Positions 1,758 through 51,944 of a stretch of 64,000 nucleotides of DNA are shown piece by piece. A program made the translations under genes and the position numbers. Positions within the stretch are counted from its first letter, which is position 1. Every line of letters begins with the position of its first letter. Origin of the DNA: an uncultured Candidatus Saccharibacteria bacterium (GTDB lineage: Bacteria; Patescibacteriota; Minisyncoccia; Phycocordibacterales; PALSA-1337); NCBI GenBank assembly GCA_964367745.1, contig CAYIYK010000001.1, positions 28,142-92,141 of the forward strand, read 5' to 3'. Below the pieces are notes generated by a model. It worked only from the letters and a program-made list of their open reading frames with translations, made no database searches and had not been told where the DNA came from.

Positions 1758-1780
1758 GGGCTCGTAGCTGTCTTGGTAGG
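1758..1780 (+). repeat. degenerate partial copy of the tRNA-Ala 5' end (gggctcgtagct...ttggtag)
   Basis: It has 12 identical nt plus a further 7 identical nt compared with the tRNA 5' acceptor/D-arm at 1813-1834. It lies 55 bp upstream of the intact tRNA. Confidence 0.5.
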
Positions 1781-1812
1781 TATACAACGAAAGCAAGTTA
1801 AAAATAAAATAA

Positions 1813-1885
1813 GGGCTCGTAGCTCAGTTGGTAGAGCAATCGCTTTGCAAGCGAAAGGTCAGGAGTTCGAATCTCCTCGAGTCCA
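1813..1885 (+). tRNA. tRNA-Ala (anticodon TGC)
   Basis: Hand-folded cloverleaf: acceptor GGGCTCG/CGAGTCC with the G3:U70 Ala identity pair, D-arm GCTC-AGTTGGT-AGAGC, anticodon loop TTTGCAA, T-arm AGGAG-TTCGAAT-CTCCT, discriminator A. CCA is not encoded. Confidence 0.9.
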
Positions 1886-1887
1886 CA

Positions 1888-2286
1888 ATGAAATTAGATC
1901 CTCGACTTCATCACTATTGTCAAAATATAACTAGAGGCTATTTGAACGATGTTGTAGAGATGTATTCCTTACTAGGTTTAAAGGTGGTTTATATTCCTGA
2001 AAACAAAGACTGGATTATGGTTGCTCAAGAACCACTACAATTTGCTATTCAAATTACTCAAGTTGAGGACACTCTAATTTCTGATGTAGAGCTTAAAAAA
2101 CGAGCACATATTGCTTTTCTTTCCGATAATCCGCAAGCAGTTATAGATAAAGTCGAAGCGTGGGCAAAAGGTAAAAGTATAAAGTTCAGACAAGGCGGGT
2201 GGTCAGATATTGAAAGATACTTTGATTTACCAGATATATTTACTAATTTTGTAGTTGAAGTAATGCATACGTCTATTGAAAAATAA
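1888..2286 (+). CDS. VOC-family (glyoxalase/bleomycin-resistance fold) protein
   Basis: Starts 3 nt after the tRNA. HIAFLSDNPQAVIDKVEAWAKGKSIKF...YFDLPDIFTNFVVEVMH matches the VOC pattern HxAFxVxD...G...YFxDPDGxxxE. Confidence 0.5.
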   Translation: MKLDPRLHHYCQNITRGYLNDVVEMYSLLGLKVVYIPENKDWIMVAQEPLQFAIQITQVEDTLISDVELKKRAHIAFLSDNPQAVIDKVEAWAKGKSIKFRQGGWSDIERYFDLPDIFTNFVVEVMHTSIEK

Positions 2287-2292
2287 AATTAA

Positions 2293-3255
2293 ATGATACA
2301 TTTCAAAAATCAGCCAAAGTTATCTGGATTTGAAGTAGATAAGAAATTTGATGAGCGTCGTGTGGTACTTGCTTCACAGATTGAGACTCTTCTTGCCGAA
2401 GATGAGTTATTCAAAGACAAAGACGTGAGTGTTGAGTTCTCTCATAAAGGGGTTTCTTCTCTGGTCAGCTTTGTTGAAGCTGATAGTAAAAAATATGTCC
2501 TCAAAATCCCACTAAGTTCTAATTCTGAAGAAGGTGAAGCTCAATTTTTGGAAGCATGGGAAGCGGTTGGTGTATCTGTACCTCATATATATAAAGAAGG
2601 GAGAGTGGGAGAGCATCCATATATTCTTATGGATTTTGTTGATGCTCCAATCCTAATGGATGAAATTAAACAAAGTACAGCAAAGAAAGATATTTATATT
2701 GAATTAGGAAGAACTCTCGCTATAATGCACACTCCAAAAGCAGAAGGTTATGGACGCATTATAAAAGGGAAACCACAATATAGAGAATTCAAAGAGTGGC
2801 TTGCAAGCGAAGATATTATAAATAGAGTCAAAGCTACTCAAGAAAATAATCTTTTAACAGATGAACATGGTTCACTTACACGTGTCTTTGATGTTTTGAA
2901 CGCATATTCTGAAAAACATCCAATAAGTACTTACTGTCATTTTGATTATGATGCTACAAACATTTTGGCAACTGAACCAATTACTATTATTGACCCAAAC
3001 CCAACATTGAATCTTGGAATCATTGATATTGCTCGAAGTATTGTGATTTCAATTTCAAGAAGCGGTTCGGTCGATTCTGGAAAACAATTGAAAGAAGGGT
3101 ATTTCTCAGGTAATGCACCATACAATGCTAATGCACTACAAGCAGCAATTATCCTAAATGCCTACATGAAATTTCCTTACTGGTATAAGAAAGAGAAAAA
3201 AGAAGCCATAGAAAATATACGACAATACCTGGCTCAAACTGCACATCTTCAATGA
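2293..3255 (+). CDS. phosphotransferase-family protein (APH/choline-kinase-like small-molecule kinase)
   Basis: Brenner-type catalytic motif HFDYDATNIL and IIDPN, plus ILMDFVDA. The length and layout are like aminoglycoside phosphotransferases. Confidence 0.6.
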   Translation: MIHFKNQPKLSGFEVDKKFDERRVVLASQIETLLAEDELFKDKDVSVEFSHKGVSSLVSFVEADSKKYVLKIPLSSNSEEGEAQFLEAWEAVGVSVPHIYKEGRVGEHPYILMDFVDAPILMDEIKQSTAKKDIYIELGRTLAIMHTPKAEGYGRIIKGKPQYREFKEWLASEDIINRVKATQENNLLTDEHGSLTRVFDVLNAYSEKHPISTYCHFDYDATNILATEPITIIDPNPTLNLGIIDIARSIVISISRSGSVDSGKQLKEGYFSGNAPYNANALQAAIILNAYMKFPYWYKKEKKEAIENIRQYLAQTAHLQ

Positions 3256-3345
3256 CATGTGGTCTTTGTTTACAAAATTGCCTTTAAATACTTCATTTCC
3301 CTCACTAGATGGTTTAGAAAAATAAAACTAAAACCTACAATAAAA

Positions 3346-3377
3346 AATAGAGTAGCTTAGGCTACTCTATTTTTTTA
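3346..3377 (+). terminator. rho-independent terminator
   Basis: atagagtagc-ttag-gctactctat followed by ttttttt. Confidence 0.6.
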
Positions 3378-3467
3378 TCTAGGATTACCACTAGATTCGA
3401 AAGACGGAGGACACGAAGGTGTCCGAGTCGGGGTCGCGGGCGAGGCTAGTAAGCCGAGACCTGTGAC

Positions 3468-3487
3468 CGAATCTCCTCGAGTCCACA
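3468..3487 (+). repeat. direct copy of the tRNA-Ala 3' end (att-like junction)
   Basis: cgaatctcctcgagtccaca matches 1868-1887 at 20/20. It is preceded by a GC-rich structured stretch and followed by the hairpin ctggcgtttgccag plus a T-run. Confidence 0.7.
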
Positions 3488-3620
3488 ACGAAAGAAAAGA
3501 CTGGCGTTTGCCAGTTTTTTCTTTTGTCTGGAACTTGAACAAGATGAGAAAGGCGGAGGTATGAAAATTATTATATTTGACTTTAGAATTTTATCGGAGC
3601 ACAATAATCTCGGATACATT

Positions 3621-4340
3621 ATGAACAAAACAACTGAAAAAGTCAGATCTATCACTGGTAGAGGTACGGCACCCTTCCGTAAACTCGATAAAAATACCGC
3701 AGGCCGTAGTTCTGTGTATGAAGGTCCTCTACAGGCAGAGTTATCTGTTGTCGTGGTTGAACCAGATGAAAAAGTTCAAGCATGCCTCATGCGGTTTTTT
3801 AAAGATATTAAAATCGCTTGTCGCAGAATCGTTATTGCTCAAGACAAAGTCACGGCAATAGCTTATATCAACGAAGGTTTATATGGTGCGACGATTACAA
3901 ATGTCTTAATGTATGACGGTGCAGGTCAACAACCTGAACCTACACTCAGCCAGTCGCGCGTCTTCAGTAGATATGTCGAAAGGCATAAACCTAGGTGCAC
4001 ACGACTTCACTATATACTTGGTGATCTTGATAATTGTTTGAGAAGATATGCAGGGGACCTATGTCCAGCTAGTACAGATACTGTGCTTTTTACAACGAAT
4101 GGACATATGATATCTCCATATGTCGATGGTGTCGGTATTCCAACTTACGAAGGATGTTTGGTACTATTTAGAAGTCTCTTTATGATGCACGAGCTCAAAC
4201 AGGGGAATCTTACACAAGAGTCGACCCCACCATTAATTGGTTTTAGATTTGGAGACAAGGGACATAATTCACGTTTTCTCTTAAAGAAAAGACCTGACTC
4301 ATCAATCAAGCGTATCTTTAGAAAATACAACGTTTTGTAG
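3621..4340 (+). CDS. hypothetical protein, GC-rich ORFan (about 240 aa)
   Basis: ORF track, using the internal Met. No recognisable motif. Composition is atypical for the window. Confidence 0.35.
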   Translation: MNKTTEKVRSITGRGTAPFRKLDKNTAGRSSVYEGPLQAELSVVVVEPDEKVQACLMRFFKDIKIACRRIVIAQDKVTAIAYINEGLYGATITNVLMYDGAGQQPEPTLSQSRVFSRYVERHKPRCTRLHYILGDLDNCLRRYAGDLCPASTDTVLFTTNGHMISPYVDGVGIPTYEGCLVLFRSLFMMHELKQGNLTQESTPPLIGFRFGDKGHNSRFLLKKRPDSSIKRIFRKYNVL

Positions 4341-4375
4341 ACAATCATGTCAACTGACACATTACACTGTTAGCA

Positions 4376-4420
4376 ACCCACTCAGTAGGAACCCTTGCTG
4401 GCTGTGGGTTTTTTGTTTGT
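4376..4420 (+). terminator. terminator-like hairpin
   Basis: acccac-N24-gtgggt followed by tttttgtttg. Confidence 0.4.
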
Positions 4421-4442
4421 TCAAATAAATTTTTACATTGAC

Positions 4443-4462
4443 CGAATCTCCTCGAATCCACA
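4443..4462 (+). repeat. third copy (19/20) of the tRNA-Ala 3' end
   Basis: cgaatctcctcgaatccaca. It shares the extended left flank tgaccgaatc with copy 2. Confidence 0.65.
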
Positions 4463-4471
4463 ATAAAAAAA

Positions 4472-4496
4472 TACCCAAGCTTTCGCAAGGGTATTT
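4472..4496. terminator. bidirectional terminator hairpin
   Basis: taccc-aagctttcgcaa-gggta flanked by A-runs and T-runs. It lies between the island end and the convergent minus-strand gene. Confidence 0.45.
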
Positions 4497-4510
4497 TGAA
4501 ATTGATTTGA

Positions 4511-5185
4511 TCAAATTCTGAAATTTTTTCTTCGTATGAAGATATACGAGAACAAGACCAATCCAGTTGCGATTGTCGAAGCTGTTTCTGGTACCGCACC
4601 AGATGCAAGTGGTGTAACTGATATTTGATAATGACCACAGTTATTGATCACATCCTCGATACCAGATGCATTTCCGAAACCGAAATTGATTACCCTTGGG
4701 AGGGTATTCAGTTGTAATACATAGGAATATGAATGATCTGAACGATATTCAGGTATCCCACCTATGTTCATACCATCATATTCTCCAACAGTATTGTTCC
4801 AAACTATGTTGTATAGGCTTGTTGATTGCTCGTATGTGGTATTGTCACCAATAAAGTAATCATTCGGCACAAGAGACGTATTACCATCAAAAGCGATTCT
4901 GTGAGTTGATGATGATGTTTTGGGTACCCAACCGATTTGTGGATTGATGAATTCGTAAAATGCATCATACAGGTTGACGGTACTGTTTTTATCAAAACCA
5001 ATTCCACTGATCTTAACTCCGACTAGTCCACTGTACTTGGAAGTCGTAGTTGCTTCGATTGAATGATCGAACATTGCAATGAGGTTCTCAGACGGCCCAA
5101 TAGGGTGATAGTAATCCGTTATAACGTGCTGTGCCTTAAGGTTTAGTGACAGCATTAGCACAACGATAACCACGATATTTTTCAT
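4511..5185 (-). CDS. secreted cell-surface protein with a C-terminal sorting signal (sortase- or PEP-CTERM-like)
   Basis: N-terminal signal peptide MKNIVVIVVLMLSLNLKA. C-terminal VPETAS, then the hydrophobic segment TIATGLVLFSYIFI, then RRK. That is a motif + TM + basic-tail architecture. Confidence 0.5.
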   Translation of the reverse strand: MKNIVVIVVLMLSLNLKAQHVITDYYHPIGPSENLIAMFDHSIEATTTSKYSGLVGVKISGIGFDKNSTVNLYDAFYEFINPQIGWVPKTSSSTHRIAFDGNTSLVPNDYFIGDNTTYEQSTSLYNIVWNNTVGEYDGMNIGGIPEYRSDHSYSYVLQLNTLPRVINFGFGNASGIEDVINNCGHYQISVTPLASGAVPETASTIATGLVLFSYIFIRRKNFRI

Positions 5186-5276
5186 TGTTTATCCTCTATT
5201 TTTAGTTTCCAAATCGATAATAATACTTATAAAAAAATATATCAAGTTTAATATTGTTTTTTGGTTTATATAAATA

Positions 5277-5296
5277 AAAAACAAAACCCGCGCATT
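5277..5296 (+). repeat. 20-bp perfect direct repeat aaaaacaaaacccgcgcatt (copy 1 of 2)
   Basis: Identical to 5927-5946. The two copies bracket ORF 5419-5895. Confidence 0.7.
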
Positions 5297-5418
5297 TAGC
5301 GAGAGTTTCTGCCATCCAAACTAATCAAGAAACAAAAATTATATATATATTGACATAATCTGAAAAGTATAATATTCTTTTTTTAGAAGCAAGTTAACAA
5401 AAAAAGAAAATTTATAAA

Positions 5419-5895
5419 ATGAGCTTAACCATTACTATGAGCTTAACCATTACTAATAGTAAAAATGGCGATGGGTGTTTTTATGATGATTGTTATGAAT
5501 CTGGAGGTCTTCATCCAGTAAGTAATTCTCTCGCTAAGATACTTATCCTTGATACAAATGATAGTCTAATCCCATGTAATTACCAGCGCTGGTTTCACGC
5601 AGATGACTCTGGTGTTGGTGGCGGAAATAACTATGTTCCTACCGGTGAAGGACCGATACCTACTGATAGTATTGAGAAAGTTGATGAAAGGTGCTTTACG
5701 ACAAGCGAGGTCAGTAGTAATTTTTTGGACGACAATATTATCCATTTGATGGATCATCCACCAGAAGGTGTGCGATTTATTAAATATGACGGGTACCAAA
5801 AAGATGATCGATCAAAATATTGTACTTTTTTTGGCTTTAGAATCATCTACCGAAGGGAAGTTTCATTTCATCACCGTATACTACTTTTCAAGTAA
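5419..5895 (+). CDS. hypothetical protein; an 18-bp tandem duplication at the 5' end gives MSLTITMSLTIT
   Basis: ORF track. atgagcttaaccattact occurs twice in tandem. No recognisable domain. Confidence 0.35.
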   Translation: MSLTITMSLTITNSKNGDGCFYDDCYESGGLHPVSNSLAKILILDTNDSLIPCNYQRWFHADDSGVGGGNNYVPTGEGPIPTDSIEKVDERCFTTSEVSSNFLDDNIIHLMDHPPEGVRFIKYDGYQKDDRSKYCTFFGFRIIYRREVSFHHRILLFK

Positions 5896-5926
5896 AGTCA
5901 GTTCACGGTTCCAGAAACCAATTTTT

Positions 5927-5946
5927 AAAAACAAAACCCGCGCATT
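5927..5946 (+). repeat. 20-bp perfect direct repeat (copy 2 of 2), part of a bidirectional terminator hairpin
   Basis: aaaacccg-cgcattgtgtgct-cgggtttttt. Confidence 0.7.
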
Positions 5947-16602: not shown

Positions 16603-17202
16603 TTACTTGGGAGGGAGCAAAGTGTCCACACCAAGCAACTGGTTATTTCCGTCGAAACGGAACCGGTAGATTCCCGCTTTTGGAAGCGTCTGCTTCCGAG
16701 GCGGAAACGATGTGTCTAGCAATCCTCGCAGAATACCGAGAAGGGGTTGATGACTCACAAACAGAGCTGACTGACCGAGCTGAATCTTATTCAGAATCTC
16801 GGTAGCCGTCTTTTGAATGTGGGCACCTTCCCGTTCGCAGAAATCTGGAATGAAAGCTTCAACTTGGTCCAAGTCTTGAGGATGACGCTCTGGTTCGAGT
16901 GCCTGATAGACGTCGTCGAGCTCTTTTTCAAGGAGCGGAGCTAGTCCGGTGAGCACTTCCCATGATCCATTCGGAACCGCAATTTCTGCAGTCTCCCGCG
17001 CCCGCACAAATGGCGAGTGGGCGAGATATGCAAATTCGGTATCTGTCAGATGGGTAGCACGGACTATCTCAATCTCCTCTCGGCCTTGCGGATAGAGGGG
17101 AGACCGGGATTGCCACATTCCATGAACTCGGATGTCTTCCTCGAGCTGGTTGTTGCCGTGGCGCATTGCCCACAGCCACTTTTCATCAGTTGGCGTTTTC
17201 AA
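16603..17202 (-). CDS. histidine-phosphatase superfamily protein (PGAM/SixA-like), in a GC-rich gene (about 50% GC by eye)
   Basis: RHG catalytic motif LWAMRHGNN. The second motif is SPFVRARETA. The composition contrasts sharply with its neighbours. Confidence 0.7.
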   Translation of the reverse strand: MKTPTDEKWLWAMRHGNNQLEEDIRVHGMWQSRSPLYPQGREEIEIVRATHLTDTEFAYLAHSPFVRARETAEIAVPNGSWEVLTGLAPLLEKELDDVYQALEPERHPQDLDQVEAFIPDFCEREGAHIQKTATEILNKIQLGQSALFVSHQPLLGILRGLLDTSFPPRKQTLPKAGIYRFRFDGNNQLLGVDTLLPPK

Positions 17203-19293: not shown

Positions 19294-20247
19294 ATGACCG
19301 CTTCAAACATTACCGAAATGGGCATCGTACAGATGCTCGCCACAGTTCTTGGTGGTGAAATCTCCGAAGATTCTGGTCCGTCCGAACGGATCAAGAGCAA
19401 GGAGAAGCAGAGGGGTGTCATCACCTCACCTGCTTCACGTAGGCTCTACACCGCAAACTCGATTATGTCCGAACATATCGGAGACCTCGTAAACGAGCAC
19501 AACCGCCTCCACGAGAATGAAGAGAAGCCTGAGAATCACGACTGCGAGGCATTCAGGGCGAAAATTTCGCGCCTGGGTGCTCGGAGGGATTTGCTCCACA
19601 GTCTTCTCTGGCAAGCAATCACCGAGGAACACCCTCAGGTTGTCGCAAACAATGCGAGTATCCGAAAAGGATGGCTCCTAGTGGATAATGATGGGGAGTG
19701 GAACGAAATCATTACCGTATCTGACAAGGCAAGTATCGCTAACAATTTCATCAGCCGTGTAACCGCAATCGTCTGCGGAAAGCGTCTGGCGGTGATGGAA
19801 GAAGAACTTGATCTCGTTGGAATTGGTGAGGAAGTAATTGGCTCGCTCAACGACGAACGTATCCAGACCCTTAGATCGCTTACTTCAGAAGTTCACAAGG
19901 AGCTGTCAAAACAGCTTTCTGCGGACGTCATGGACGCCGGTAGTAATGTTATCGGGAATATGACTGTAAATGAGGTGAGCCGTCTGATCGCACAGGCGAT
20001 ACATCTCAAGAAACTGTCTGACCTTACATCCTCCTTGTTCTGGTGCGGTGTTCGTGATGCTGTTCCAGCAGCAGCGGATCTTCCGAATATTGGTATTCGG
20101 CGGGCGTGGGATGTCGTCAAATGTGTTCATGATGAGGACGAAGACGGCATCAAGATGGTGATGACCCCGACGGGTCCCATAATTGAGATGAAAGTCCCTA
20201 TCCCAAGAGGTTTGCTCATGTCCTTATTGGGACGTGGTGGACGCTAA
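19294..20247 (+). CDS. hypothetical protein, GC-rich ORFan (317 aa)
   Basis: ORF track. No recognisable motif. Composition is about 50% GC. Confidence 0.4.
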   Translation: MTASNITEMGIVQMLATVLGGEISEDSGPSERIKSKEKQRGVITSPASRRLYTANSIMSEHIGDLVNEHNRLHENEEKPENHDCEAFRAKISRLGARRDLLHSLLWQAITEEHPQVVANNASIRKGWLLVDNDGEWNEIITVSDKASIANNFISRVTAIVCGKRLAVMEEELDLVGIGEEVIGSLNDERIQTLRSLTSEVHKELSKQLSADVMDAGSNVIGNMTVNEVSRLIAQAIHLKKLSDLTSSLFWCGVRDAVPAAADLPNIGIRRAWDVVKCVHDEDEDGIKMVMTPTGPIIEMKVPIPRGLLMSLLGRGGR

Positions 20248-28499: not shown

Positions 28500-29342
28500 A
28501 TGAATCACCTTATAACAATCACCAAAGCGGATGGAAAGAAAGAATTATTTGAAGAACAAAAATTAATCGATTCATTGAGAAATGCTGGTGGTAGTGAAGA
28601 AATAATAGATGATATTCTAGGTCATATAGGTAAAGAAATATATGACGGAATGCCAACTAGTGAGATTTATTCTAGAGCATTCAAACTTCTACGAAGTCAC
28701 TCTATGCCTATGGCTATCAAGTATTCTTTGCGAAGAGCACTTTCTGATCTTGGTCCAGACGGTTTTCCTTTTGAAAAATATGTAGCAAAAATATTTCAAG
28801 CTTGGGGATATGAAACTCTTACAGACCAGACTGTTCTAGGTGTATGTGTGGCACACGAAGTAGATGTTATTGCTTGGAATAAAGACAGGTTGATGATGGT
28901 TGAAGCAAAATTCCACAATGAACTAGATCTAAAGTCTGATTTAAAAGTGATTTTGTATATCAAAGCAAGATTTGATGATCTCAGAGGTAATATGTTCAAG
29001 TATGGAGGAATCGTCCGAAAGCTAGATGAGGGATGGCTAATAACGAATACTAAGTTTACCGATCAAGCTATAAGATATGGAGAATGTAATGGTGTAAAGA
29101 TGCTCGGTTGGAACTATCCAGCAAAGGGCAATCTTCAAGATATCATCGAAGAATTGAGACTTCATCCTTTTACTTGTCTTGCAAATATTTCAAATGTAAA
29201 TAAAAAAGCATTATTGAAAAAAGGTGTAGTTCTGTGTACTGATATTTATAATAACCCAAAAGTTTTGGAGGAAATAGGTATGAAAGAACCAAATATTGAG
29301 GAAGTAATGAATGAAATAAAAGTTGTTTGCGGAATAAACTAG
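28500..29342 (+). CDS. ATP-cone domain fused to a PD-(D/E)xK (Mrr-like restriction-endonuclease fold) nuclease domain
   Basis: The N-terminal ITKADGKKELFEEQKLIDSLRNAG is an ATP-cone. FEKYVAKIFQAWGYE...VDVIAW...VEAKFH gives the D...ExK nuclease core. Confidence 0.55.
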   Translation: MNHLITITKADGKKELFEEQKLIDSLRNAGGSEEIIDDILGHIGKEIYDGMPTSEIYSRAFKLLRSHSMPMAIKYSLRRALSDLGPDGFPFEKYVAKIFQAWGYETLTDQTVLGVCVAHEVDVIAWNKDRLMMVEAKFHNELDLKSDLKVILYIKARFDDLRGNMFKYGGIVRKLDEGWLITNTKFTDQAIRYGECNGVKMLGWNYPAKGNLQDIIEELRLHPFTCLANISNVNKKALLKKGVVLCTDIYNNPKVLEEIGMKEPNIEEVMNEIKVVCGIN

Positions 29343-50921: not shown

Positions 50922-51944
50922 ATGACAAATACAAATATCATTAAGAATGAGGATGGTAAACTTGTAATATATACAAGTGCAAGTGGAGCGGTGGAGTTAA
51001 GGGCAGATACGGATAGTGAAACTATCTGGGCTACGCAAGCCCAGATTGCGGAATTGTTTGAAACTACCGTACAAAATATAATTTTACATTTAAAAAATAT
51101 ATATAATGAAAAAGAGCTAGAGAAAAAAGCAACTTGTAAGGAATTCTTACAAGTTCAAATTGAAGGAAGTCGCTCTGTTAAGCGCTCAATTGAATTTTAC
51201 AATTTAGATGCAATAATTGCAGTGGGCTATAGAGTCAACTCTAAAAAAGCTACACAATTCCGTATCTGGGCTACAACTACTCTCCGCGAATACCTAATCA
51301 AAGGTATCGTTGTTAATAATGAAAGAGTGTCAAAGCTTCCAGACAAAATATTAAAAGATCTTGAAGAAAAGATTTCTCTAATTCAAAGAACGGTAAGAGA
51401 AAGACAATTAGATCAAGGAGAAACTAATAGTCTATTGTCAGTTATCCATGACTATGCGAACTCTTGGAAATTTCTTAAGGAATACGATGAAGGAGAATTG
51501 AAGCTTAAGAAAAGTAAAGAAATTGAAAAGAGAAAGTTTGATTATGAATTTATTCGAGGATCTATTGATGTTTTAAAAGAAATGTTAATAGATAAAAGGG
51601 AAGCAACAGATTTGTTTGGTTCAGAAAGAGATGGAAGCTTCCAAGGTATATTGAAAACTATATATCAAACATTTGATAGTAAAGAACTGTACTCTAGTCT
51701 TGATGAAAAGGCATCACATTTACTTTATTTTATTATAAAGGACCATCCATTTTCTGACGGGAATAAGCGTATTGGATCATTCGTTTTTATTTATTTCTTA
51801 AGATTAAATAAAATTGATATTAGATCAAATGGTGAAAAGAAAATAAATGACAATACTCTCGTTGCCATCGCTCTACTTATAGCTGAAAGTGATCCGAAGG
51901 ATAAAGATTTAATGGTTGCTTTGGTTACTAACCTGTTGTCATAA
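50922..51944 (+). CDS. RhuM-family protein with a C-terminal Doc/Fic-like domain
   Basis: The N-terminal AELFETTVQNI...FYNLDAIIAVGYRVNSKKATQFRIWAT is RhuM-like. The C-terminal HPFSDGNKRIGSF matches the Doc motif HxFx(D/N)GNKR. Confidence 0.6.
   Translation: MTNTNIIKNEDGKLVIYTSASGAVELRADTDSETIWATQAQIAELFETTVQNIILHLKNIYNEKELEKKATCKEFLQVQIEGSRSVKRSIEFYNLDAIIAVGYRVNSKKATQFRIWATTTLREYLIKGIVVNNERVSKLPDKILKDLEEKISLIQRTVRERQLDQGETNSLLSVIHDYANSWKFLKEYDEGELKLKKSKEIEKRKFDYEFIRGSIDVLKEMLIDKREATDLFGSERDGSFQGILKTIYQTFDSKELYSSLDEKASHLLYFIIKDHPFSDGNKRIGSFVFIYFLRLNKIDIRSNGEKKINDNTLVAIALLIAESDPKDKDLMVALVTNLLS

Follow-up and report, generated by a model that had tools for sequence, protein, structure and literature searches.

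Repeated tRNA-Ala 3' ends and a GC-rich hairpin module outline a candidate row of integrase-less cassettes in a Paceibacteria-type bacterium

Bacteria of the Candidate Phyla Radiation (CPR, or Patescibacteria) have very small genomes, and the routes by which they gain and lose genes are little known. A tRNA-Ala locus in an uncultured Candidatus Saccharibacteria bacterium (assembly GCA_964367745.1) raises the question of how genes may come and go behind a single tRNA that has no integrase beside it. We analyzed 64,000 nucleotides (nt) of contig CAYIYK010000001.1 (positions 28,142 to 92,141, forward strand), hereafter the window, in which copies of the 3' end of the tRNA gene punctuate the DNA downstream of it. 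On balance, we lean toward the view that integrase-less cassettes have accreted at tRNA-Ala, and that a hypervariable row of such cassettes extends between tRNA-Ala and lexA in a Paceibacteria-type (CPR) lineage. The observations that carry this view are the repeats themselves, one precise insertion/deletion, a permuted arrangement in relatives, and a GC-rich module that is conserved and covaries across lineages. If true, a hotspot behind one tRNA, with a structured element and no local integrase, would offer a testable route of accessory-gene turnover and would bring in a structured DNA or RNA element that existing catalogues lack.

The loci and contigs of relatives compared with the window are labeled L001 to L147. 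The window has a GC content of 35% (its open reading frames [ORFs] average 35.4%, with a standard deviation of 4.3), and the relatives of its ddl gene come from metagenome-assembled genomes with names that include Saccharibacteria, Taylorbacteria, and Nomurabacteria. The gene order ddl to tRNA-Ala is kept in L003 to L007 and in L137. As a reading of the sequence alone (the sequence-only reading) had proposed, the tRNA is a tRNA-Ala: a single tRNA, tRNA-Ala(UGC) at 1813-1885/6, is called by both ARAGORN and Rfam. The 20-mer CGAATCTCCTCGAGTCCACA, which spans the T-loop from C56 to the discriminator base and two trailer bases, occurs exactly at 1868-1887 and 3468-3487 and with one mismatch at 4443-4462, and chance would produce no such repeats (0 expected from 100 shuffles). 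Copies 1 and 2 are identical over 21 nt, one base beyond the 20-mer (CCACAA). TGACC stands to the left of copies 2 and 3 and is missing from the tRNA, which bears out the earlier remark that these two copies share flanking identity that the tRNA lacks. The features from the tRNA to copy 2 are as follows.

1813 to 1885, plus strand: functional tRNA-Ala(UGC), with G3:U70 and no encoded CCA (Rfam tRNA model, 71.2 bits, full length; also ARAGORN)
1868 to 1888, plus strand: repeat copy 1 (O), tRNA nt 56-73 and 3 nt of trailer, CGAATCTCCTCGAGTCCACAA; left junction of interval 1
1888 to 2286, plus strand: gene for a 132-amino-acid (aa) VOC-fold protein, its ATG overlapping the last base of the repeat
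2293 to 3255, plus strand: gene for a 320-aa APH/ELK-fold small-molecule kinase (PF01636, 41 bits; PF03881 below cut-off)
3347 to 3376, plus strand: terminator-like hairpin and T-run after the kinase gene, read from the sequence and not called by a simple terminator scan
3396 to 3468, plus strand: GC-rich module, consisting of the 5' motif TTCGAAAGACGGAG, hairpin 1 (3409-3424), and hairpin 2 (3432-3440 with 3460-3468)
3468 to 3488, plus strand: repeat copy 2, exact over 21 nt; right junction of interval 1

Interval 1 (1888-3488, 1.6 kb) opens with the ATG of its first ORF at 1888, 3 nt past the tRNA, as had been claimed. In L003, L006, and L139/L140, the tRNA is joined straight to what stands after copy 2 in the window. 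The match is 97% between window 3468-3563 and L003 5165-5260 (the ddl of L003 is 98% identical in amino acids and about 91% in nucleotides), 89% between L006 and window 3489 onwards, and near identity for L139/L140. From these empty sites it follows that interval 1 is bounded exactly by the 21-bp repeat and is a genuine insertion/deletion polymorphism. The sequence-only reading had taken the repeats for the junctions of two tandem insertions. They do look like recombination junctions, and the first interval is a true indel with precise empty sites in relatives; such sites were found for interval 1 only, and the second interval, described below, is no discrete second islet.

The same species occurs in five samples (L001 and L142 to L145), with the VOC and kinase genes directly behind the tRNA. 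Four of the five carry a different gene (ORF159) after the kinase; therefore, variation falls right at the junctions within one species. In L142, a chimeric module that has a repeat of its own comes after ORF159; the contigs of the other three stop inside ORF159 or ahead of it. Other contigs also stop at these points, L002 at window position 1889 and L001 at 3458, and L056/L058 start 7 nt before the repeat. Independent assemblies that break at the repeat junctions hint at strain heterogeneity there.

Relatives also carry the same parts in another order. In L146/L147, the tRNA is followed by a terminator, a W-type module (84% to 3381-3493), the repeat, and the VOC gene, and their GTCCACA/ATG junction is identical to the tRNA/VOC junction of the window. 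Module, repeat, and VOC gene are thus contiguous in L146, whereas in the window they lie at the two ends of interval 1, a circular permutation that integration of a circle through the repeat would predict. The same kind of permutation is seen in L051 and L052 for a small membrane-protein cassette. The 3' end of a cassette is ordered terminator, spacer, module, and repeat in the window, L003, L141, and L142; the unit next to the tRNA is the best preserved, with repeat and module both intact, and distal units are mutated or truncated.

The module has a GC content of 63% in a 35% genome, and its predicted RNA fold (-45.3 kcal/mol; z -3.75, with a second z of -4.6) lies well beyond shuffles. A GC-rich, hairpin-dense leader had been assigned to the start of interval 2; this was misplaced, since 3396-3468 lies to the left of copy 2 and ends interval 1, and what comes after copy 2 is a single strong terminator hairpin (3491-3527). 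The strands of hairpin 2, GGTCGCGGG (3432-3440) and CCTGTGACC (3460-3468), pair such that the final C (3468) is the first base of repeat copy 2. In general, the module consists of a 5' motif, (TTCG/TGAG)AAAGNCGGAG, a variable hairpin 1, and hairpin 2; the foot of the latter, GGTCRNRRR/YYYNGTGACC, runs up to and includes the first base of the tRNA copy. Homologous modules are present in L003, L027, L045, L046/47/54, L048, L051, L052, L057, L142, and L146; across at least seven lineages of Patescibacteria, the module is fused to a copy of the 3' end of the local tRNA-Ala. The copy follows each genome's own tRNA (CTCCTCGAGTCCAC, CCTGTAGGGTCCAC, CCTGTCTGGTCCAC, CTCCTTAGGTCCAC, and CTCTTAGGGTCCAC), while YGTGAC on its left and C56 as the first identical base do not change between lineages. 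A metagenome search with the pattern CTNGTGACCGAATCN7GTCCAC gave 12 matches, 9 of them modules on low-GC contigs and 3 in high-GC coding DNA; eight of the nine low-GC contigs also carry a tRNA-Ala gene, usually just upstream, followed by a terminator.

Hairpin 2 folds in 8 of 10 modules, with 90-92% pairing versus 24-52% in slid controls. Three of its pairs show compensatory change on both sides, in a small sample and in an alignment (A5) that was fitted to the model. Position 5 of the helix is an invariant G-U (G-T) pair, and because of it the fold can form on the tRNA-sense strand only. The module matched no Rfam family, and neither ARAGORN nor covariance models matched it to tmRNA or to a catalogued tRNA-like RNA. 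Several identities were tried and given up. A tmRNA or permuted tmRNA was rejected on the empty ARAGORN and Rfam results and the absence of a T-stem 5' strand, and hammerhead and other small ribozymes and a group I intron were rejected because Rfam gave no match and the core motifs misfit. The motif AAGNCGGAG was considered as a T-stem 5' strand pairing with the copy, and it can do so in the window, but it takes another register in L045 and fails in L046; this pairing was discarded because no consistent covariation holds across the window, L045, and L046.

Beyond copy 2, the row continues with features that appear older.

3489 to 3545, plus strand: usual tRNA trailer ('A'), with the strong bidirectional terminator at 3491-3527 and a spacer
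3546 to 3600, plus strand: decayed resident module, with the motif TGAGAAAGGCGGAG and a degenerate remnant of hairpin 2 and repeat (TTTGACTTTAGAATTTTATCGGAGC)
3621 to 4340, plus strand: ORF239, a near-ORFan cassette gene of 239 aa (259 aa from an alternative ATG at 3561)
4443 to 4463, plus strand: repeat copy 3, with one mismatch, TGACC on its left and no module, after the terminator of ORF239
4464 to 5925, no strand assigned: further variable segment with ORF224 (4511-5185, minus strand) and ORF158 (5419-5895), absent in L003 and L139

The trailer terminator is a perfect 18-bp hairpin (terminator scan match at 3500-3515), and the trailer is 97% identical to L003 5185-5260, directly behind the tRNA of L003. 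The segment 3546-3600 aligns with an intact module at the same position in L003 and has the same decayed form in L139. Since interval 2 begins with the usual trailer, which makes up its first ~100 nt, and ORF239 occurs in L139/L140 (as a 74% homologue) without interval 1, this interval is not a separate recent insertion. It is the older resident part of a variable array, and relatives offer no clean empty site for it. Interval 2 had been described as visibly GC-richer; it is richer, but only mildly, with 39.6% (40.7% in ORF239) versus 35% in the window. The ORFan claimed within it is indeed nearly one, as ORF239 has 3 clusters among 5.8 billion and Pfam, NCBIfam, PADLOC, and PHROGs gave no match. 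In L003, its slot is filled by an unrelated 236-aa ORF (ORF236), homology between the two being ruled out by comparison, and L141 has both in tandem. Model R1 matches the region of copy 3 weakly (4405-4461, 18 bits), and truncated repeat copies stand at the equivalent position in L003 and L139.

Farther out, 20-nt direct repeats AAAAACAAAACCCGCGCATT (5277-5298 and 5925-5946; the first half of a terminator) flank the ORF158 segment, and L003 and L139 have one copy of AAAAACAAAACCCGCGCATT and no ORF158. The content between tRNA-Ala and lexA differs in every relative examined (L003, L004, L005, L007, L056, L137, L139, and L146). PADLOC and PHROGs gave no match in this variable region, and a defence-island reading was dropped on that account. 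The trailer after a repeat often provides a near-consensus promoter for the next cassette: TTGAC-17-TATAAT in L051 (2124-2152) and L052 (1311-1339), and TTGACA-17-TATAAT in L142 (3730-3770).

Derivatives of the tRNA are found on its upstream side as well.

1758 to 1812, plus strand: pseudo-tRNA-Ala 5' fragment and spacer, the 5' copy being at 1758-1780

The degenerate copy of the tRNA 5' end that had been noticed at 1758-1780 is real: 19 of its 23 positions match, including all of the first 12. An insertion of 55 nt occupies 1770-1824; it is bounded by 12-nt direct repeats GGGCTCGTAGCT (1758-1769 and 1813-1824) and is absent in the same-species strain L142; L137 has the same fragment, and L143 has two in tandem. 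Model R1 also places the module upstream of the tRNA in pseudo-tRNA fragments of L012 and L051. In both (L012 7740-8040 and L051 1474-1760, each on the minus strand), an exact copy of tRNA nt 1-24 is followed by the module, tRNA nt 27-38, and a spacer, and in L012 there are two tandem 157-nt units. The fragment at 1758-1812 is the decayed equivalent of these upstream units, and exchange within the 5' block of the tRNA might, by conjecture, put such units upstream. Derivation from the tRNA is clear only for the units upstream of it, those in L012 and L051 together with their decayed counterparts (window, L137, and L143). The idea that downstream modules also sit inside pseudo-tRNAs was abandoned, since their left flanks match the 5' part of the tRNA no better than shuffles do (p 0.18-0.97). 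Three further details were observed here. The D-loop of the L051 unit contains an extra 41-nt GC-rich insert. A promoter-like site, TATACA-18-TAAAAT (1781-1810), lies inside the 5' fragment of the window, just ahead of the tRNA. After the tRNA terminator of L012 (7560-7625, plus strand), an inverted partial copy of the tRNA 3' end is interrupted by a 25-nt GC-rich hairpin and reads GTTCGAGTCCTG, atgcgagcaatccccattgctcgct, and TAGGGTCCAC in succession.

How could such a row arise? In the scheme that we favor, cassettes would build up by recombination in the last ~20-30 bp of the tRNA gene, from C56 of the T-loop into the trailer. A circular or donor form, ordered module-repeat-VOC-kinase, would recombine with the tRNA's own repeat (Campbell-type). 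The outcome would be a VOC gene fused to the tRNA end, with the module and a second repeat at the far end, before the old trailer. Older cassettes, pushed farther out, would decay, as the cargo-less terminator-module unit, ORF239 with copy 3, and the ORF224/ORF158 segment may have done. The module would most likely be a cassette-side recombination or recognition structure, and the recombinase, acting in trans, may be encoded outside the window. We infer the circular intermediates, the site-specific rather than homologous nature of the exchange, and any role of the module from the arrangements described above.

Several observations weigh against this scheme. No recombinase was found by Pfam/NCBIfam on the islet ORFs or by Pfam on 10 unassigned window ORFs, in agreement with the lack of an integrase noted at the outset, and none was seen beside any module, the module neighbors having been read by eye only; the remaining window ORFs look housekeeping, again by eye. 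No phage, plasmid, or IMG/VR contig with the module or the islet turned up: BLAST of the islet against PLSDB and a phage collection found nothing, and a phage or plasmid origin was set aside after two IMG/VR pattern scans gave chance matches in high-GC coding DNA only. Interval 1 has a host-like GC content (34%). The close relatives L004, L005, L007, and L137 have a variable region behind tRNA-Ala and no repeats, and because other short direct repeats flank cassettes (5277/5927), the tRNA repeat is not the sole route. RecA-type exchange via natural transformation would give the same indels. Finally, in L012 and L051 the module is also found upstream, inside pseudo-tRNA 5' fragments, where it is joined to tRNA nt 27-38, not 56-76, which the simple model fails to predict.

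One rival explanation is a locus with no dedicated system at all, where the repeats are relics of tandem tRNA-Ala duplications, DNA from relatives enters by ordinary homologous or homology-facilitated recombination anchored on the tRNA, the trailer, and lexA, and a dead copy of the tRNA harbors the module as a passenger insertion. In favor of such a history are the 5' fragments of pseudo-tRNAs that precede the tRNA (window, L137, L143, L012, and L051), as well as two tandem tRNA-Ala genes in L045, the other short repeats that bound cassettes, the host-like GC content of the islet, the empty recombinase searches, and the related genomes that vary without repeats. Relics would, however, hardly begin their identity always exactly at C56 beside a constant YGTGAC though the tRNAs differ, nor would a decaying passenger keep two hairpins by compensatory change. 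No derivation from the tRNA can be detected in the left flanks of downstream modules, and two distinct settings have the start codon of the VOC gene fused to the end of the repeat. We regard this explanation as possible but doubtful, and prefer the accretion of cassettes.

Cassette accretion can be taken one step further, to an undescribed integron-like capture of cassettes in this Patescibacteria clade. Here, the T-loop and 3' end of tRNA-Ala(UGC) would be the docking site, the module and its copy the cassette site, and the recombinase would be encoded elsewhere; recombination between the module and the 5' half of the tRNA gene, also open to such a system, would account for the upstream units. 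In this extended form, we consider the proposal rather unlikely.

The module could instead matter as RNA. Together with its tRNA-3' copy, it would then be a small structured RNA that mimics the 3' end of tRNA-Ala, is read through from or processed with the tRNA, and is kept for an RNA-level function, cassettes merely accumulating around it. The GC contrast with the genome, the folding beyond shuffles, and the invariant G-U at helix position 5, which puts the fold on the tRNA strand, are what such an RNA would display; moreover, a terminator follows the copy in six of nine lineages, and the commonest form is the cargo-less terminator-module-copy unit. Against this, there is no Rfam family match and no convincing promoter (promoter-like sites were at chance level in the promoter scan), modules decay readily (window 3546-3600, L006, L139, and L141), and the copy is truncated in L003. 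No conserved partner was found for the acceptor and T-stem strands, registers differing by lineage, and the indels bounded by copies are left unexplained. We hold an RNA of this kind to be improbable as the reason for the arrangement.

What the cassettes carry bears on the remaining alternative, and we begin with the protein encoded next to the tRNA. The 132-aa protein has no direct Pfam or NCBIfam match, but its AlphaFold2 model (pLDDT 95.6) has the VOC superfamily fold (paired beta-alpha-beta-beta-beta), as had been predicted for the first gene. Among PDB entries, Foldseek ranks glyoxalase, FosA/B/X, and HFX_CASS4, a protein from an integron cassette, at the top (prob 1.0, TM about 0.6), with 9-20% identity to solved structures, and PF13669 is matched by 4 of 34 relatives. 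H8, H9, Q55, H74, and E124 are invariant. The protein thus shares with the VOC superfamily (glyoxalase I and FosA/B/X) both the fold and the His/His/Glu ligands, and Q55 replaces the second-site Glu of glyoxalase I (GloA ligands). No Pfam or NCBIfam sequence model placed it among FosA/B/X or BLMA. In L143 (390/391), the VOC gene has a 250-nt internal deletion (window 1959-2208 missing) and is therefore dispensable in that strain. In other Patescibacteria, VOC homologues lie in variable accessory clusters behind tRNA-Asn (L059 3652-3727 and L060 2854-2928), with GrpB, GNAT, NYN, glyoxalase, and AAA_18 kinase genes or a type ISP restriction system; no tRNA-Asn 3'-end repeats were found around them in L059 or L060.

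The 320-aa protein shares the fold and conserved catalytic motifs of the APH/fructosamine-3-kinase (ELK) superfamily: the PF01636 match comes with an intact H-x-D-x4-N and Mg-binding D (H216, D218, N223, and D234), so that its assignment to an APH-family kinase holds. A profile search of the PDB gave ribulosamine-3-kinase (E 5.5e-4) ahead of hygromycin kinase (E 0.036), and in Foldseek a putative fructosamine-3-kinase ranked narrowly before APH(4), APH(9), and the ethanolamine and homoserine kinases (TM 0.5-0.65). By these comparisons, the kinase lies as near to fructosamine-3-kinases as to aminoglycoside kinases. No NCBIfam resistance equivalog reached its cut-off (APH_3p, 13 bits versus 205), either for the kinase or for its relatives. 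Members of the two families are found widely across Patescibacteria, at 40-90% identity and on large chromosomal contigs, and elsewhere the two genes are usually not adjacent; neither protein belongs to a characterized subfamily of its superfamily. In L137, a kinase gene (75% in amino acids) stands right behind tRNA-Ala without the repeat and without the VOC gene, so that the counterexample named beforehand, the same genes at this site without repeats, exists in part, for the kinase only.

The sequence-only reading saw in this pair a resistance-like cargo, that is, an antibiotic-inactivation islet (VOC plus APH) in a host living among antibiotic producers. FosA/B/X and glyoxalase among the best VOC matches, APH(4), APH(9), and APH(3') among the kinase fold matches, and the mobility of the pair as a unit in this species are in its favor, but we consider it very improbable, since the likeness is one of fold (9-20% identity, TM 0.4-0.65), no resistance equivalog applies, the best sequence-profile relative is ribulosamine-3-kinase, both families are common on large Patescibacteria chromosomal contigs and usually apart, and one strain has lost the inside of its VOC gene. 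A role of the cargo in antibiotic resistance is possible but unsupported. VOC-fold and APH-fold proteins beside mobile-looking repeats are not evidence of antibiotic resistance.

Elsewhere in the window, two ORFs look foreign by their GC content in a 35% setting, at 16603-17202 (minus strand, 52%) and 19294-20247 (plus strand, 50.5%); one of them encodes a histidine phosphatase (PF00300), and the other has no Pfam match. Amid housekeeping genes, a RhuM/Fic-domain protein is encoded at 50922-51944 and a fusion of an ATP-cone and an Mrr-type restriction endonuclease at 28500-29342.

Where does the locus stand among known systems? Group I introns at the tmRNA T-loop and frequent tRNA introns have been described in Patescibacteria (PMC13011429), and a structured insert in tRNA-Ala-like sequence, clearest in the upstream units of L012 and L051, is a shared trait. 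Unlike these introns, the module is only about 70-170 nt long and has no Rfam group I match, its ends do not follow splice-site rules, and the interrupted copies are truncated pseudogenes.

With integrase-mediated tRNA islands, the locus shares the distal repeat of the tRNA 3' end and, for interval 1 only, an empty site; no integrase was found inside or adjacent, the remaining ORFs and module neighbors having been judged by eye. The closest integration sites are the T-loop class used by tyrosine integrases in tRNA and tmRNA genes, reportedly defined by Williams (2002, Nucleic Acids Res). As in that class, identity runs from the T-loop through the tRNA 3' end plus a few bases, and the tRNA is restored. 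In contrast to it, no integrase gene adjoins either junction, and the element side shows no T-stem-like inverted repeat; rather, the last pair of a long hairpin abuts the crossover.

Integrons invite a broader comparison, their attC sites and integrase-less clusters (CALINs) being reportedly treated by Cury et al. (2016, IntegronFinder). Shared traits are arrays of cassettes with one to three genes each, permuted in order between relatives, a hairpin site at the cassette 3' end whose stems covary while the sequence drifts, and ORFs that start at the cassette boundary (the VOC ATG fused to the repeat); an integron cassette protein, HFX_CASS4, is among the structural matches of the VOC protein. 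The differences are equally clear. No tyrosine recombinase was found (islet ORFs and 10 unassigned ORFs), and so no intI of the kind that goes with an attI site and a Pc promoter, and the junctions that were read have no GTTRRRY and no R''-L''/L'-R' architecture. In place of these, GGTCR..YGTGACC forms the conserved foot, and the stretch in common measures 19-29 bp of tRNA gene, versus about 3 bp in integrons. Most cassettes here have their own terminators, some have promoters, and some boundaries have no module, which also sets them apart from integron cassettes.

The nearest relatives in anatomy are cis-mobilizable elements (CIMEs) and the tandem accretion of islands at tRNA 3' ends (PMC5704250). 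CIMEs have att-like direct repeats of the tRNA 3' end and no integrase or transfer genes (PMC5704250), and the locus matches them in keeping attL/attR-like repeats with integration and transfer genes lost. As in tandem accretion, units stack behind an intact tRNA, the newest next to it, and older ones decay. No integrase-bearing relative that uses the same att site was found in IMG/VR, PLSDB, or the phage collection. To our knowledge, these organisms have no parent integrative and conjugative element, integrative and mobilizable element, or prophage with a matching integrase. Compared with CIMEs, the units are tiny (0.15-1.6 kb, with zero to three genes), many are cargo-less, and they end in a conserved hairpin module, which is not a CIME feature. 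The finding is therefore best filed as CIME-like with an integron-like flavor, the uncatalogued structured module being its new element.

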